A stretch of DNA of 53,178 nucleotides. It comes from Minisyncoccota bacterium. GTDB taxonomy: Bacteria > Patescibacteriota > Minisyncoccia > Phycocordibacterales > UBA5272. A model generated the notes under the pieces. That model made no database searches. It was not told the DNA's origin and saw only the letters and a list, made by a program, of their open reading frames with translations. The position numbers were made by a program, and so were the translations under genes. Within the stretch, counting starts at the first letter, position 1. Every line of letters starts with the position of its first letter. Below are positions 5,044-37,116 of the stretch, piece after piece. Location of the stretch: assembly GCA_018063165.1 (NCBI GenBank), contig JAGOQU010000004.1:23039-76216 (forward strand). Direction: 5' to 3'.

Positions 5044-5089
5044 CGAATCTTGGCGTAAGTGACGCAGGTCACTTACTGTCCACGCACTA
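5044..5089 (+). repeat. inverted copy of the tRNA-Ile 3' end interrupted by a 22-nt hairpin
   Basis: CGAATCTTGG-c-[GTAAGTGAC GCAG GTCACTTAC]-tgtc-CACGCACTA reads like the sense tRNA-Ile T-loop/T-stem and acceptor 3' strand. It lies on the strand opposite the gene. Confidence 0.8.
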
Positions 5090-26746: not shown

Positions 26747-27013
26747 CTAGCTTGGCAATTTAACACATGAACCCATTAAATGGGCTGATGACCCAGATCC
26801 AAAAATCATAACAAAATCAACAAGTCCATCCTTAGTTTCATGTAAAAAACAATACTGAGGACCGTTTATTTTTTCAGCTTCATCCTGGAGTTTAACTTCC
26901 TTAGTAAAACCCATCCTGATAGCTTCTTGTCTGGTTATAAGAATATATCTTGCAGCCAAACTTTGAGAAACAAGAGAGAGAAGGATCAATAAAACAAAAA
27001 AGAACTTTTTCAT
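26747..27013 (-). CDS. small secreted protein, hypothetical
   Basis: Internal start MKKFFFVLLILLSLVSQSLAA (signal peptide) is preceded by GGAGG at 6-nt spacing. The longer track ORF to 27253 has a TTG start and no signals. Confidence 0.55.
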   Translation of the reverse strand: MKKFFFVLLILLSLVSQSLAARYILITRQEAIRMGFTKEVKLQDEAEKINGPQYCFLHETKDGLVDFVMIFGSGSSAHLMGSCVKLPS

Positions 27014-27636
27014 ACAAAACCTCCAAAAGTTAAACAAAAAAAACTCTGGTATAAGCTTAATTTCAAACTTTTTCATTTCAAAAAAATCAATTGTATCAAC
27101 CTCAATATAACATGTGTCAATAATATGCTTTGTTAAAACTTGTCCAGTAACTTCAAAAAAAACATTTTCATCCCAAAGACTAGAACACCCTTCTTCTGGG
27201 GATACAATAACTACATGTATCTTATCTCTAGATTCACAATACCTTGCTGGCAAGGTTTCAAAGAGTAATTCTGTTACGTCTTTTTTCTTTTATAACATGG
27301 GCTATTTTGACCATATTTCATGAGTCCCTCTTTTTTTATATTACTTAAACATCCTCTATCTTTCTACCACATTACTTACCACTATGTCAATACACTGTCT
27401 TGTTTTCACAAAATCAAAGAAATCATTAAAATCATAATAAGCTTCTGCAATCCCCTTATCATCAGAAACTTTCATTTTTTAACAAATGACATTTTAAATT
27501 CATCAACAAATGACCATTTATAAAAAATCAACTAGCTACATACTATTAATAATTTTTATTATATTAACCCCTTAGGTTCTTTATAAAAGACAAATTACTA
27601 TAAGGCTTATAAATCAATGTCTTTTATAAAGGACAT

Positions 27637-29145
27637 TTATTGTTTTACCTTAAATTGCTTGCGAATTTGCTGAACCTTTTCTTTATTCTTCTCTTCCATT
27701 TCATCTTTACCAGCTCTTCCCAACTTAGAAAGATCATCCACTGATAGTTTCATAAGAAACGCAGCACGCTCATCCAAATACACTTCTGTATTTTTTTCTG
27801 GGTTTTCGAGAACTTCGTCAAACAAAGCATGTAAAACATAACCAATCTTTGGACCTGCCGTTTCCTGTGTAACGTCCATAATACGTTTCCCGTCTGTTTT
27901 GAGCATCTTTAAACTAATAGGATCCTGAAGAGCTTCTTCAATCATAGATTCATACATACGAAGCCTATATGGCTCTTCTTTTGGCCTTCCTGTGCCTATT
28001 CGATCGCAAATACGAAGATTCACTAGATCCCAAATATTATCCTTTCCTACGTTCGTTATAAGCCTTCTGACAGCAGATATCGTAATCTGTTCCGTGTCAG
28101 AAAAGAACATATGCCAACGAACAAACATAGAAACCTTATCCGTTAAGTCTTTAGGGAACTTTAATCTCTCCATTATTTCACGTGTAACGCGTCCACCTAC
28201 GACATCGTGACCATAAAACGTATAATCCCCTTTCTCTTTTGAGAAACGCCTTGTTTCTGGTTTTGCTATGTCATGGAATAATGCAGAGAGTCTCACGTGT
28301 AACGGCCATTTTTTATCTGCTGAATGCTGAAGAGTTCGTAGATTATGTTCCCAAACATCAAAACTATGAGCCTGATTCTGCATAACCCCTATTCCTTTTT
28401 CGAGTTCAGGAACAACAAATCTTAAAATAGAAAGTTCTTTCATGAAAATAATCCCTCTCATTGGATAATCGGTAATGAGTAATTTGCAAAATTCATCTTT
28501 AATTCTTTCACGTGAAATGTTTATGAGTAAATCACTGTTTCTTTCTACACTTTCACGTGTAACGGTATCAATATCAAAATCTAACTGACTCATAAACCGA
28601 ACGGCTCTCATAAGTCTAAGCCCATCTTCTTTAAATCTAAGATCCGCATCTCCAACTGCTTTAAGTATTTTATCTTTAATTGCAGATACTCCGTCAAAAG
28701 GATCAATAACTTCTCCAGTAATAGGATTATATGCTATAGCGTTACATGTGAAATCTCTTCGCTTTAGATCGTCTTCTATATGTTTACTCCACATAACTTC
28801 ATCAGGATGACGATTATCTGAGTACGTTGTTTCTAAACGATATGGTGTTACTTCAACTATTTTAACTGTTTCATCACTACACACAGGTAAATTTTCTTCA
28901 CCACATGTTACAACCCCTACCGTTCCAAATGAGTTTTCATAAAAAGTTTTTGGGAACAGAGCTATTATCTCTTCAGGTGTTGCATTTGTTGTTATATCAA
29001 AATCTTTAGGTTTCACACCCATAATAAGATCACGAACACATCCTCCAACAAGAAACGCTTCAAAAGAAGCACCTTGTAATACTGCGAGAACCATGAGAAC
29101 CTCTTTTGGTATTGTTATACCTTGTAATTCCTGTATTTGTTTCAT
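27637..29145 (-). CDS. cca: CCA-adding tRNA nucleotidyltransferase with HD domain
   Basis: GGCVRDLIMG..PKDFDITT nucleotidyltransferase head, RDFTCNA, and an HD-domain LFHDIAKP. This is consistent with tRNA genes here lacking encoded CCA. Confidence 0.88.
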   Translation of the reverse strand: MKQIQELQGITIPKEVLMVLAVLQGASFEAFLVGGCVRDLIMGVKPKDFDITTNATPEEIIALFPKTFYENSFGTVGVVTCGEENLPVCSDETVKIVEVTPYRLETTYSDNRHPDEVMWSKHIEDDLKRRDFTCNAIAYNPITGEVIDPFDGVSAIKDKILKAVGDADLRFKEDGLRLMRAVRFMSQLDFDIDTVTRESVERNSDLLINISRERIKDEFCKLLITDYPMRGIIFMKELSILRFVVPELEKGIGVMQNQAHSFDVWEHNLRTLQHSADKKWPLHVRLSALFHDIAKPETRRFSKEKGDYTFYGHDVVGGRVTREIMERLKFPKDLTDKVSMFVRWHMFFSDTEQITISAVRRLITNVGKDNIWDLVNLRICDRIGTGRPKEEPYRLRMYESMIEEALQDPISLKMLKTDGKRIMDVTQETAGPKIGYVLHALFDEVLENPEKNTEVYLDERAAFLMKLSVDDLSKLGRAGKDEMEEKNKEKVQQIRKQFKVKQ

Positions 29146-29757: not shown

Positions 29758-29783
29758 AAAATTCTCGTTTCACTCGTATTTTG

Positions 29784-29854
29784 TGCGGCGTAGGAGAATC
29801 GAACTCCTGTCTCAACCTTGGCAAGGTCGTGTTCTACCACTAAACCAACACCGC
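29784..29854 (-). tRNA. tRNA-Gly (anticodon GCC)
   Basis: Hand-folded. Acceptor GCGGTGT/ACGCCGC, D arm GTTT..GAAC, anticodon arm CGACC-TTGCCAA-GGTTG, T arm AGGAG-TTCGATT-CTCCT, discriminator A. No CCA. Confidence 0.9.
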
Positions 29855-29970: not shown

Positions 29971-30070
29971 AAACTGTGGATAACCCTGTGAGTAGCGTGT
30001 ATAAGAGACAGGTGTTAAGGACTTACAAGACATTGAGGACAGAGCTTACTATTCCAATAAAACCTTATAG
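29971..30070 (+). repeat. short diverged relative of the 234-bp repeat (opposite orientation)
   Basis: It shares, in order, with the reverse complement of 35571-35804: a TTATCCACA-type 9-mer (here inverted, TGTGGATAA at 29975-29983), ATAAGAGACAG, TTAAGGAC, GAGGAC and CAATAAAACCTTA. Confidence 0.55.
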
Positions 30071-34960: not shown

Positions 34961-35344
34961 ATGTGGACATTCATTAAAACCGTTATGAATTTTGTATTAA
35001 AATACAAGATTCAGATCTGGCTCGGCCTTTCAGTTTTCGTGCTCCTCTTTGTTGATGGGTATCGCATACAAGGATTCTTGTCTACTATTGTTGCAGGGGT
35101 TGTCCTCACCAACAACACTGGTAATGTGTTAAACTTTTTTGTTAAGTATCTCACGATACTTGTCAAAAAGTTTTTCTTCATTGCCGTCGGAGGAAAGGGG
35201 GTGTCGCTCTCATTATTTGCCAACGGCACACTTCTTATGCTCGTTGGAATGATGAGCGCCAACCCTCTTATCCCAGCAATCGGAGGAGTGGGCATCATCC
35301 TCAGTATTATTGTTGCTGTGGGAAACGCAGCCAATAAAAAATAA
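34961..35344 (+). CDS. small integral membrane protein, hypothetical
   Basis: ATG at 34961 is preceded by GGAGG (5-nt spacing). Four hydrophobic helices. The track start 34949 is a TTG inside the RBS. Confidence 0.6.
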   Translation: MWTFIKTVMNFVLKYKIQIWLGLSVFVLLFVDGYRIQGFLSTIVAGVVLTNNTGNVLNFFVKYLTILVKKFFFIAVGGKGVSLSLFANGTLLMLVGMMSANPLIPAIGGVGIILSIIVAVGNAANKK

Positions 35345-35356
35345 TACTACCCCGTT

Positions 35357-35386
35357 AAAAGCGGTCCTTACGGACCGCTTTTTTTA
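35357..35386 (+). terminator. terminator (GCGGTCC-ttac-GGACCGC plus T7)
   Basis: AAAAGCGGTCC-ttac-GGACCGCTTTTTTT, 13 nt after the stop. Confidence 0.8.
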
Positions 35387-35410
35387 ATTTTGTATACCAC
35401 CAGAAAGAAA

Positions 35411-35462
35411 AAACCCCTGCATTATAGGTCCGAATAATTTCAGACACATAATGCAGGGGTTT
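35411..35462 (-). terminator. 15-bp hairpin at the end of repeat module 1 (better T run on the minus strand)
   Basis: AAACCCCTGCATTAT-22 nt-ATAATGCAGGGGTTT. The minus strand continues TTTTTTCTTTC. Confidence 0.45.
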
Positions 35463-35480
35463 CTCAAAAAGAGATTATAG

Positions 35481-35505
35481 CTACATGGGAATCACTTCCT
35501 AAAAG
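35481..35505. repeat. 25-nt conserved box, copy 1
   Basis: CTACATGGGAATCACTTCCTAAAAG is identical to 36051-36075. It contains GGAA-GTGA-TTCC, read on the minus strand. Confidence 0.85.
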
Positions 35506-35570
35506 CTGATAAAAGAACTAATCTAAAACTATTCTAGCAATATCTAGGCATATGTATGTAGTTTTATATA

Positions 35571-35804
35571 TAAGTAAACAGGTAAACTTTAAGGGTTTTT
35601 ATTGTGTGGAGATCTAATTGTGATCTTTATGGTCCACGATGGAAAGAACAATGTTGTGGTAGAAGGTTGTGCGCAAAACTTGATATCCCGATTAACGCAC
35701 GGGTGAGCGTTTTTGGTCACGTCCTCTACCCTGTCCTTAATAGTACTCCTACTGTCTCTTATGCGCAAGTGTCCTTATGTGTATATCTGTGGATAAGTCT
35801 TTTA
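35571..35804. repeat. 234-bp noncoding repeat, copy 1
   Basis: Base-for-base identical to 36100-36333. It is GC-richer than the surrounding spacers and has several helices (GGTAGAAGG..CCTCTACC, GTGCG..CGCAC, GTGGAGATC..GATC..TCCAC). Confidence 0.9.
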
Positions 35805-35956
35805 GATAAGGATATCTCTATAAGACTACTTCTTCCCATGACAAGAACTTTAGACCACACCCTGTGAACAACAAAGACATCTACAGAACACTGTGTCTTA
35901 TATTTTATGTCTAAAAAAATTATCACTATATTAAATAAACTATATTATAAAAAAAT

Positions 35957-36013
35957 AAAACCCCTTGCATGGTACACGCGAACTGTATTCGTGTACACAA
36001 TGCAAGGGGTTTT
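35957..36013 (-). terminator. composite hairpin at the end of repeat module 2
   Basis: AAAACCCCTTGCA...[GTACACG..CGTGTAC]...TGCAAGGGGTTTT. The minus strand continues ATTTTTTTAT. Confidence 0.45.
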
Positions 36014-36050
36014 GGTAAACATAGATGTTTACGAAACGAGATAATAATAT

Positions 36051-36075
36051 CTACATGGGAATCACTTCCTAAAAG
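36051..36075. repeat. 25-nt conserved box, copy 2
   Basis: Identical to 35481-35505. Confidence 0.85.
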
Positions 36076-36099
36076 ATAATTATTCTAAAAAAAGAAACG

Positions 36100-36333
36100 T
36101 AAGTAAACAGGTAAACTTTAAGGGTTTTTATTGTGTGGAGATCTAATTGTGATCTTTATGGTCCACGATGGAAAGAACAATGTTGTGGTAGAAGGTTGTG
36201 CGCAAAACTTGATATCCCGATTAACGCACGGGTGAGCGTTTTTGGTCACGTCCTCTACCCTGTCCTTAATAGTACTCCTACTGTCTCTTATGCGCAAGTG
36301 TCCTTATGTGTATATCTGTGGATAAGTCTTTTA
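36100..36333. repeat. 234-bp noncoding repeat, copy 2
   Basis: Identical to 35571-35804. It ends 90 nt upstream of the rsmE start. Copy 2 is flanked by TAAG on both sides. Confidence 0.9.
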
Positions 36334-36423
36334 TAAGAAAATACCTCTTTCAAAACATCTTACAAAGATTGTCTCTTCTTTATGATTGCAATGTCTTTTG
36401 GCTTAACGTAAGCTAGATACTAT

Positions 36424-37116
36424 ATGCGATTACATCGCTTTTATGTATCACAACCCCTTGGTGAAGAAGTTGTAATAGAAAACGTTTCAATACTGAAACA
36501 ATGGTTAAAGGTTTTTAGATATACAAAAAATGATTCTGTTATTCTCTTTAATGGAGATGGTTTTGATGTCACATACACCATTGAAGAAATAACCTTACAA
36601 AAAGGTATACTTGTACAAAACAGTAAGTTGGCTTCATACATACCAACTAAAAAAATAAAACTATATCTTTCTCTTATTAAAAAAGATAACTTTGAGTTTG
36701 TCGTTCAGAAAGCAACAGAACTTGAAGTGAGTGAAATCATACCCGTACTTTCAGAAAGATCAGAAAAGAAAAATCTTAATAAGGAAAGACTTATAAAAAT
36801 TGCAACAGAAGCATCCGAACAGTGTGGGAGGGGGGATGTGCCTACTATTTCTGACATCCTAACACTTAAAAAAGCACTTGAAACTATGCACAAAAATGAA
36901 GATACTTTTGTTCTACAGATGAATGGTATTAATATTTCTGAAACACGTACTAAAAACACATCCAATACAATATCGCTCTTTATTGGGCCAGAAGGTGGAT
37001 GGAGCGTTGTAGAGGAGGAATTATTTAAGAATATGAACATTGTATCAATTTCATTGGGAAACACTGTTCTACGAGCAGAAACAGCCTCCATAGCGGCACT
37101 TGCATTATTTAAGTAA
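36424..37116 (+). CDS. rsmE: 16S rRNA (uracil1498-N3)-methyltransferase RsmE
   Basis: MRLHRFYV..., LFIGPEGGWS..E and SLG..VLRAETA..AAL are RsmE signatures. Confidence 0.9.
   Translation: MRLHRFYVSQPLGEEVVIENVSILKQWLKVFRYTKNDSVILFNGDGFDVTYTIEEITLQKGILVQNSKLASYIPTKKIKLYLSLIKKDNFEFVVQKATELEVSEIIPVLSERSEKKNLNKERLIKIATEASEQCGRGDVPTISDILTLKKALETMHKNEDTFVLQMNGINISETRTKNTSNTISLFIGPEGGWSVVEEELFKNMNIVSISLGNTVLRAETASIAALALFK

Follow-up and report, generated by a model that had tools for sequence, protein, structure and literature searches.

The window analyzed here, a stretch of 53,178 nt from contig JAGOQU010000004.1 of a Minisyncoccota bacterium (assembly GCA_018063165.1), raises a simple question: What is the non-coding DNA directly upstream of the ribosome-maturation gene rsmE, where two segments of 234 bp (35571-35804 and 36100-36333) are identical and end sharply at both borders? 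An earlier note, made from the letters of this DNA alone, had pointed out the identity of these segments despite their different flanks, which we find to hold base for base, and had proposed a novel pair of non-coding RNA (ncRNA) genes, a nonautonomous mobile element, or a duplicated regulatory or origin-like DNA region as candidates. We consider it likely that a new structured RNA is encoded here by tandem genes on the minus strand. The locus would then consist of two paralogous genes for an undescribed RNA, both read away from rsmE and each equipped with its own sigma-70-type promoter, with DnaA boxes upstream of the -35 element, as well as its own intrinsic terminator. The two predicted genes are the following:

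35952 to 36265, minus strand: RNA gene of module 2 (rsmE-proximal), about 312 nt, from a start at about 36261-36265 (around 36263) to the U-run past the terminator; both ends predicted.
35405 to 35736, minus strand: RNA gene of module 1 (rsmE-distal), about 330 nt, from about 35734 to 35405; both ends predicted.

A covariance model of the family matches 36167-36265 in module 2 and 35638-35736 in module 1 with 95.4 bits each. The 25-nt box CTACATGGGAATCACTTCCTAAAAG that had been reported ahead of each repeat is indeed found at 35481-35505 and 36051-36075, at distances of 65 nt and 24 nt, respectively. A hairpin also precedes each repeat, but the arms of these inverted repeats (35411-35434/35439-35462 and 35957-35982/35988-36013; 85-88% complementary) are with 24-26 nt longer than the 13-15 bp claimed previously, while their better T run lies on the minus strand in both modules as had been described. 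The element is GC-richer than its surroundings, with 48% G+C in the 5' domain of the predicted RNA compared to around 34% across the window, and its only open reading frame (ORF) had been called implausible; neither strand of the 234-bp repeat holds a plausible ORF of at least 40 amino acids. The duplication itself does not seem to be an assembly artefact because a second NCBI assembly, GCA_017992935.1, holds the same 1080-bp intergenic sequence including both copies, with 2 differences from the window in 10.3 kb.

Relatives of the locus were gathered via the neighboring RsmE protein, which gave 8 rsmE-anchored contig groups; a pattern derived from the most conserved block then retrieved 29 species-representative genomes and a second pattern 14 metagenome contigs, for a family of around 45 sequences. 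Each contig that extends upstream of rsmE bears the module there, in one or two copies and antisense to rsmE. The 29 genomes, labeled as Nomurabacteria, Paceibacterota, or Parcubacteria plus some others, have one pattern match each, directly upstream of an rsmE gene that starts with ATGCGATTACATCGC. All 14 metagenome contigs show the RNA domain directly behind the matched promoter, a result that covers the RNA and not its adjacency to rsmE. The look at copy number and context in related genomes that the earlier note had recommended thus revealed homologs that occur once or twice, fixed at rsmE. Single copies are present in contigs L006 and L007 (rsmE 64% identical; DNA identity 76% over 479 nt), L004 and L005 (67%), as well as L008, L012, and L057, and two tandem copies each in L010 and L022. 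Both contigs of the closest relative (rsmE 77%), L002 (1-209) and L003 (1-120), stop inside or just past the element, which is the pattern expected from an exact repeat in short-read assembly. L002 and L003 derive from different samples and sources.

The gene order around the locus is conserved as well (RNase Y, ClpP, variable small genes, the module, rsmE, DoxX, and trigger factor), and the genes on the module's far side differ among relatives. The non-coding DNA of the module is conserved to the same degree as the flanking proteins, and modules of different relatives vary by indels of 1-2 nt that cost short ORFs their frame; the module is therefore not protein-coding. A small ORF (MKFVSL...) starting from the UUGCAUGAAG block of relatives was considered and rejected, as its frame is not maintained, indels of 2 nt are present, and the AUG is absent from the window.

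Since RNAalifold gave only a partial structure on raw MAFFT alignments, we placed the helices manually before counting their pairs. The proposed fold runs from a 5' domain with a pseudoknot over a pyrimidine-rich single strand, a variable hairpin, and a GNRA hairpin with an internal loop to the terminator, and its parts are located as follows:

36167 to 36259, minus strand: 5' domain of module 2, with P1 (36252-36259 paired with 36187-36194), P2, P3, a predicted H-type pseudoknot at 36216-36239, and the conserved single strand UUGUUCUUUCC.
35638 to 35730, minus strand: 5' domain of module 1 with the same parts, in the identical repeat.
36135 to 36166, minus strand: P4 hairpin GUGGA...UCCAC of module 2, with covariation.
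35606 to 35637, minus strand: P4 hairpin of module 1, inside the repeat.
36047 to 36079, minus strand: P6 hairpin (the 25-nt box) of module 2, with an outer stem, a conserved internal loop, an inner stem GGAA/UUCC, and a GUGA loop.
About 35477 to 35509, minus strand: P6 hairpin of module 1 with the same parts.
36011 to 36036, minus strand: extra small hairpin GUAAACAU/AUGUUUAC, in the proximal copy only; the L010 proximal copy has a hairpin at the same place.
35957 to 36013, minus strand: terminator of module 2, a hairpin of 22 bp that contains a conserved irregularity and is followed by UUUUAUUUUUUU on the minus strand.
35411 to 35462, minus strand: terminator hairpin of module 1, followed by UUUUUUCUUUC on the minus strand.

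For the 5' domain, 86% of the cells pair in a plain MAFFT alignment of 31 sequences, compared to 31-52% when the partners are slid by 1-3 columns, and 88% pair in a model-based alignment of 37 sequences. Double-sided changes appear in at least 1 sequence for 19 of the 29 pairs, and none of 500 shuffles matched the observed values. In the window, the closing helix P1 consists of GGUAGAGG/CCUUCUACC. Above P2 and P3 follow the two pseudoknot helices S1 (ACGC/GCGU; 87-91% of cells pair, with double changes in 3 of 4 pairs) and S2 (CCCG/CGGG; 90-95%, 4 of 4 pairs), which read ACUC/GAGU with CCUAU/AUAGG, AAGC/GCUU with AUCGC/GCGAU, or AAUA/UAUU with GUCCU/AGGAC in different relatives. These helices interleave and both show compensatory changes, as is diagnostic of the H-type pseudoknot that the RNA is predicted to form. 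Two of the helices listed in the earlier note, GGTAGAAGG/CCTCTACC and GTGGA...TCCAC, likewise covary in relatives, but the third one, GTGCG/CGCAC, does not. As an inner helix of the RNA (GUGCG/CGCAC), the latter was rejected: It overlaps S1 and has zero covariation support, and the pseudoknot takes its place. A pairing of the 5'-end GGACAG with UUGUUC can form in 95% of the cells, shows no covariation, and is disrupted in 4 sequences. The proximal copy of L010 (2522-2895), with a 5' domain only around 50% identical to all other members and a score of 48.6 bits compared to 81-102 for most, may be degenerating or shifting its function.

Downstream of the 5' domain, a P4 hairpin is found at the same place in 32 of 32 sequences, and its stem differs in nearly every lineage yet always pairs, with 142 Watson-Crick pairs, 6 G-U, and 2 other combinations in the closing 5 bp; the count of 6 G-U versus 1 A-C is biased because the hairpins were drawn from minus-strand folds. 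P6 has double-sided changes in 9 of 10 pairs, including an inner stem that covaries between GGAA/UUCC, GGUU/AACC, GAUU/AAUC, and GACU/AGUC, and its minus-strand loop reads GUGA, GCGA, or GAGA in 26 of 29 sequences and thus follows the GNRA pattern. Across the whole 3' domain, 87% of cells pair (31-50% in slid controls), and 22 pairs have double changes. Thirteen of these belong to the 22 pairs of the terminator hairpin, where 90% of the cells pair and the irregular middle is conserved. In all members, this GGGG/CCCC-capped hairpin of 22 bp gives way on the minus strand to a run of 6-10 U, interrupted 1-2 times, as is typical of intrinsic terminators, and we predict that transcription ends there. 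A simple terminator scanner missed this hairpin, its loop and stem being beyond the scanner's limits.

Some parts of the RNA vary between lineages. Many relatives have a small hairpin between P4 and P6 as well as a hairpin with the conserved loop UAAUCUUGU, both of which are absent from the RNAs of the window. In relatives such as L020, L033, L036, and L040, the UAAUCUUGU(C) loop sits on a covarying stem, and both this loop and the linker UUGUUC are complementary to GGACAG, the invariant 5' end; an alternative pairing or switch between these sequences is conceivable. A subgroup formed by L014 (5366-5521), L018, L032, and L038 stands out by an insertion in P1 and by a different 3' region, which is larger and includes an additional long hairpin (CCCCACUCUCCUGA...UCAGGAGAGUGGGG).

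Conserved helices could be read from either strand of the DNA, and the direction of transcription therefore deserves separate consideration. The relevant promoters are located as follows:

36269 to 36297, minus strand: promoter of module 2, with -35 element TTGCGC (36292-36297), a 17-nt spacer, and -10 element TACTAT (36269-36274).
35740 to 35768, minus strand: promoter of module 1 with identical sequence (-35 element at 35763-35768, -10 element at 35740-35745), inside the exact repeat.
36386 to 36426, plus strand: rsmE promoter TTGCAA-17-TAAGCT, divergent from the RNA gene, with its end 9 nt ahead of the ATG at 36424.

The frame TTGCNN-16/17-TAYTAT-TAA followed by GGACAGGG with its GGACAG start is present in all 36 family members listed, 4 of which (L008, the distal copy of L022, L002, and L017) were found independently of the promoter-based pattern. 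Its composition is that of a sigma-70-type promoter, a role that we predict for it. Other genes of the window are likewise preceded by TTGCAA or TTGCAT, with a -10 element at a distance of 15-18 nt. Behind the hairpin, all members have the U-run on the minus strand only; the plus strand has an A-run before the hairpin and only 2-4 T after it. From this U-run, the promoter frame, and the GNRA loop of P6, which would be UCNC on the plus strand, we infer minus-strand transcription as well as the ends of the transcripts. A start 5-8 nt past the -10 element gives RNAs of around 36263-35952 (about 312 nt) and 35734-35405 (about 330 nt). The view of the modules as minus-strand transcripts ending at the hairpins is favored over the plus-strand alternative, and the length of about 380-400 nt that had been suggested shrinks to a predicted 310-330 nt in the window; in relatives, the predicted RNA spans around 270-400 nt. 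Because the predicted start lies inside the repeat, the right-hand ~70 bp of the latter correspond to the promoter and upstream DNA and the other ~165 bp to the 5' part of the RNA.

These observations also bear on the idea that the element is a plus-strand cis-regulatory leader of rsmE, comparable to a riboswitch in a 5' untranslated region, of which the second copy would be a spare or decayed duplicate. Such a leader would fit the proximal copy, which abuts rsmE in each rsmE-anchored and genome locus examined, and the counts of wobble pairs and the folding energies are compatible with the plus strand. Nevertheless, we regard it as unlikely. The element is separated from the ATG by a conserved promoter of rsmE (TTGCAA-17-TAGnnT), which stops 6-10 nt short of this start codon, there is no conserved plus-strand promoter ahead of the hairpin, and the polarity of the terminator as well as the loop of P6 are those of the opposite strand. 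Furthermore, promoter, structure, and terminator are retained in the distal copies of the window, L010, and L022 although these copies have no ORF downstream of them on the plus strand, which together with the promoter of rsmE itself argues against an rsmE leader.

The rsmE promoter block TTGCAATGTCTTTT...TAGnnT is conserved in all relatives, and the rsmE mRNA is apparently leaderless, as judged from the position of this block. The first 17 nt of rsmE (ATGCGATTACATCGCTT; 36424-36446) are invariant in around 30 species, synonymous sites included. This start forms a 5-bp hairpin GCGAU/AUCGC followed by a U-rich stretch, which was flagged by the terminator scan. The invariant start combined with an apparently leaderless promoter suggests control at the RNA level at the beginning of rsmE. 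TGTCYTTTW was tried as a general promoter motif and rejected, as it is not enriched in the window (10 found, 6 expected).

If the locus encodes an RNA read away from rsmE, it could be new or an extreme version of a universal one. Against the families of Rfam 15, which include RNase P RNA, transfer-messenger RNA (tmRNA), signal recognition particle (SRP) RNA, 6S, raiA, OLE, ROOL, GOLLD, and HEARO, no match was obtained: The gathering score admitted only tRNAs in the window and in 18 loci of relatives, a relaxed search of 35300-36450 (E<=10) gave only terminator-driven chance matches, and nothing overlapped the RNA at E<=1 in 9 divergent loci. ARAGORN found 5 tRNAs and no tmRNA in the window. 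The Rfam comparison that the earlier note had advised was thereby made without any family being matched, and its impression that motifs of tmRNA, RNase P RNA, or SRP RNA are missing agrees with both programs. One could still argue for a 6S, RNase P, SRP, or tmRNA too divergent for current models, given the housekeeping-like conservation, the strong consensus promoter, and the presence in one or two copies. Bacillus, for comparison, has two 6S RNAs, and sequence searches are notorious for missing RNAs of this type. We find this highly improbable, because these families lack even weak matches, the unpaired 5' and 3' ends do not allow a rod with a central bubble, ARAGORN sees no tRNA-like end, and, by inspection only, neither a P4-type motif nor an SRP domain IV motif was seen. 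Our literature search found no prior description of this RNA. Of the candidates proposed initially, the pair of novel ncRNA genes is thus the one favored by the covariation, the conserved minus-strand promoter, the U-run, and the lack of an Rfam match.

Why, then, are the two copies identical over exactly 234 bp? The terminator hairpins of the window's distal copy and the L010 distal copy are 81% identical and those of the two proximal copies 88%, compared to only 62% between the distal and proximal copies of the window. The extra small hairpin, too, is common to the proximal copies in the window and in L010. With 3' halves that are orthologous to the two copies of L010, the duplication must predate the split of these lineages. 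By contrast, identity between the 5' domains of the two copies is 100% in the window but 53% in L010, and the tandem copies of L010 and L022 have diverged, unlike the pair in the window. An old duplication combined with exact identity over 234 bp points to recent gene conversion between the copies of the window, and the predicted conversion tract is made up of the DnaA boxes, the promoter, and around the first 165 nt of the RNA. Gene conversion accounts for identical segments between differing flanks as well as for the sharp borders of the repeat, without any mobile element. In some single-copy relatives (L006 at around 5060-5080 and L019, where the plus strand reads CTGTCCTATACAAAAAG right before the hairpin), the minus strand beyond the terminator reads GTATAGGACAG. 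This sequence resembles the -10 element and start of the RNA gene (TATTAAGGACAG) and could be what is left of a distal copy that has been lost.

The same borders had initially suggested a non-autonomous mobile element (a miniature inverted-repeat transposable element, MITE, or the remnant of an insertion sequence) inserted twice, with the TAAG near the ends of copy 2 as a possible target-site duplication. We consider this hardly tenable. Although exact identity with sharp ends would fit such an element, the 234-bp segments have no terminal inverted repeats, a sensitive BLAST search and the covariance model found no third copy in the window, and BLAST searches of phage and plasmid collections gave no match. 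The patterns mark one locus per genome, the element occupies the same syntenic place in more than 40 genomes and contigs, and its paralogues diverge in step with their hosts. The MITE proposal and the TAAG duplication are therefore not supported, and the ends of identity are better read as borders of a gene-conversion tract than as borders of an insertion site.

The third proposal, duplicated regulatory or origin-like DNA, leads to the DnaA boxes upstream of the RNA promoters:

36307 to 36325, minus strand: DnaA boxes of module 2, with a perfect TTATCCACA at 36317-36325 and a 7/9 box ATATACACA at 36307-36315.
35778 to 35796, minus strand: DnaA boxes of module 1, with a perfect box at 35788-35796 and a 7/9 box at 35778-35786.

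The consensus DnaA box TTATCCACA, which was outside the first search pattern, has a fixed position in 35 of 36 sequences, where it ends 8 nt ahead of the -35 element. In the window, this fixed position is taken by the 7/9 box, with the perfect box located upstream of it at a distance of one helical turn; two perfect boxes are present in the closest relative. Of the 3 perfect boxes in the window, 2 belong to this locus. Between the RNA start and the rsmE start of 31 loci, the RNA strand has 148 instances of the 9-mer WWAWVSACA, compared to a single one on the opposite strand. The 9-mer takes the forms TAAAAGACA, TTATCCACA, and TTAAGGACA and has conserved positions that include both promoter spacers and the RNA start. 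Across the whole window, the enrichment of this 9-mer is mild (65 found, 48 expected).

Similar sequences are also found elsewhere in the window. The third perfect TTATCCACA (29975-29983, minus strand) lies around 120 nt upstream of a tRNA-Gly gene (29783-29854, minus strand) and is preceded at 29990-30055 by three TGTC[CT]... motifs (TGTCCTCAA, TGTCTTGTA, and TGTCTCTTA). At 27584-27635, three 9-mers of the type TAAAAGACA or TAAAGGACA in both orientations are packed into 52 bp within a gene-free stretch of 383 bp, which is bordered by two ORFs on the minus strand (26747-27253 and 27637-29145).

It is conceivable that the functional unit at rsmE is the DNA itself, a DnaA-box cluster acting as origin, as titration site, or in a way similar to datA or DARS, next to which the flanks merely look structured. 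The invariant consensus box with 4-6 box-like 9-mers in the same orientation, the conserved spacing of this array across both divergent promoters, and the concentration of two thirds of the window's perfect boxes would all suit such a site. The array of around 130-150 bp cannot, however, account for compensatory changes in more than 50 base pairs over around 300 nt, and it would be compatible with an RNA gene if it were the latter's control region. Of the features of an oriC, the locus shows the cluster of DnaA boxes but, within these 53 kb, no switch of GC skew or gene orientation: The skew is negative on both sides, its cumulative curve falls steadily from 0 to -5.8 without a turning point, and minus-strand genes dominate both flanks. 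A purely DNA-based function is thus very unlikely in our view. What stands of the third proposal is the regulatory part, in that around 70 bp of the repeat are predicted to be promoter and DnaA boxes, while an origin finds no counterpart in the GC skew.

With the tandem RNA genes as our preferred reading, the synthesis of the RNA along with that of rsmE would be set by DnaA occupancy and thus by replication status, and an array nucleated by DnaA could occlude both divergent promoters. To a link of DnaA with the RNA gene and rsmE, which builds on the position and number of the boxes, we would give an even chance, and to any particular function of the RNA a far smaller one. The RNA itself would act in trans as a stably folded and possibly protein-bound molecule, because such an RNA, more than a simple antisense regulator, is suggested by the pseudoknot, by the combination of a GNRA loop and a conserved internal loop, and by the sequence conservation of the terminal hairpin. 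Alternatively, the conserved pyrimidine-rich single strands (UUGUUCUUUCC and, in relatives, GUUUGUUUCUCUU) could base-pair with targets rich in purines. More speculatively, and with the odds clearly against it, this may be, instead of a base-pairing sRNA of the usual kind, a clade-specific complex RNA with a core role (e.g., as component of a ribonucleoprotein or as a ribozyme-like molecule) that is gated by a DnaA oligomer spreading from the invariant box over both promoters, which would couple replication to ribosome maturation via rsmE.

Several observations weigh against this interpretation. Folded as single sequences, the two strands of the 234-nt unit have unremarkable z-scores of -1.6 and -1.5. 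Wobble pairs leave the strand undecided (72 G-U versus 72 A-C over the counted helices), and the predicted folding energies are similar for both strands and slightly better for the plus strand. Part of the invariance of the promoter was imposed by the search patterns, the strict adjacency to rsmE is also compatible with a cis element, and DnaA binding is assumed from the consensus only.

The locus represents a well-supported new RNA family whose members possess a pseudoknot, a GNRA loop, and a promoter and terminator of their own, at a fixed place beside a ribosome-maturation gene. Its hosts of the candidate phyla radiation have tiny genomes with few regulators and cannot yet be grown alone, and neither Rfam 15 nor our literature search turned up a described ncRNA that is specific to these bacteria. 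The DnaA-box promoter array provides a concrete and testable link from replication control to an RNA, and the window pair is an example of concerted evolution in which the promoter and 5' domain of old paralogues are homogenized while the 3' halves are kept apart.

Among known systems, the raiA motif RNA as an example of the orphan, mid-size structured RNAs of bacteria is closest in general appearance. Like the predicted RNAs of the window, RNAs of this type are independently transcribed molecules of around 200-300 nt with their own promoter, terminator, and a pseudoknot, and they are encoded beside a ribosome-related gene without being its leader, a context from which their function is not obvious. 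They differ in that there is no match in sequence or structure, and in that the RNA described here belongs to the candidate phyla radiation, has a promoter with DnaA boxes, and occurs as tandem paralogues. This latter arrangement is reminiscent of OmrA/OmrB of E. coli and PrrF1/PrrF2 of Pseudomonas, short (~90-150 nt) and Hfq-dependent base-pairing RNAs with known regulators and targets. Their genes are likewise adjacent, in the same orientation, equipped with their own promoters and terminators, and in part identical with the rest diverged, whereas the RNAs of the window are with around 310-330 nt much longer and feature a pseudoknot and a GNRA loop.

For the proposed connection to replication, two further systems invite comparison. 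The ncRNA CcnA of Caulobacter crescentus is located at the origin and driven by CtrA. According to a published study (PMC8959179), CcnA acts on the master regulators CtrA and GcrA, and it is, as may apply here, an ncRNA tied to master regulators of cell cycle and replication. Our locus differs from it by having DnaA boxes and by sitting away from any skew switch. In Bacillus subtilis, clusters of DnaA boxes outside oriC are thought to regulate their neighbors. As at these clusters, several boxes in the same orientation occupy an intergenic region between divergent genes at the rsmE locus, but here only 1-2 of them are consensus sites, the rest are putative sites made up of 9-mers of the TAAAAGACA type, and one of the two neighbors is the predicted RNA gene.

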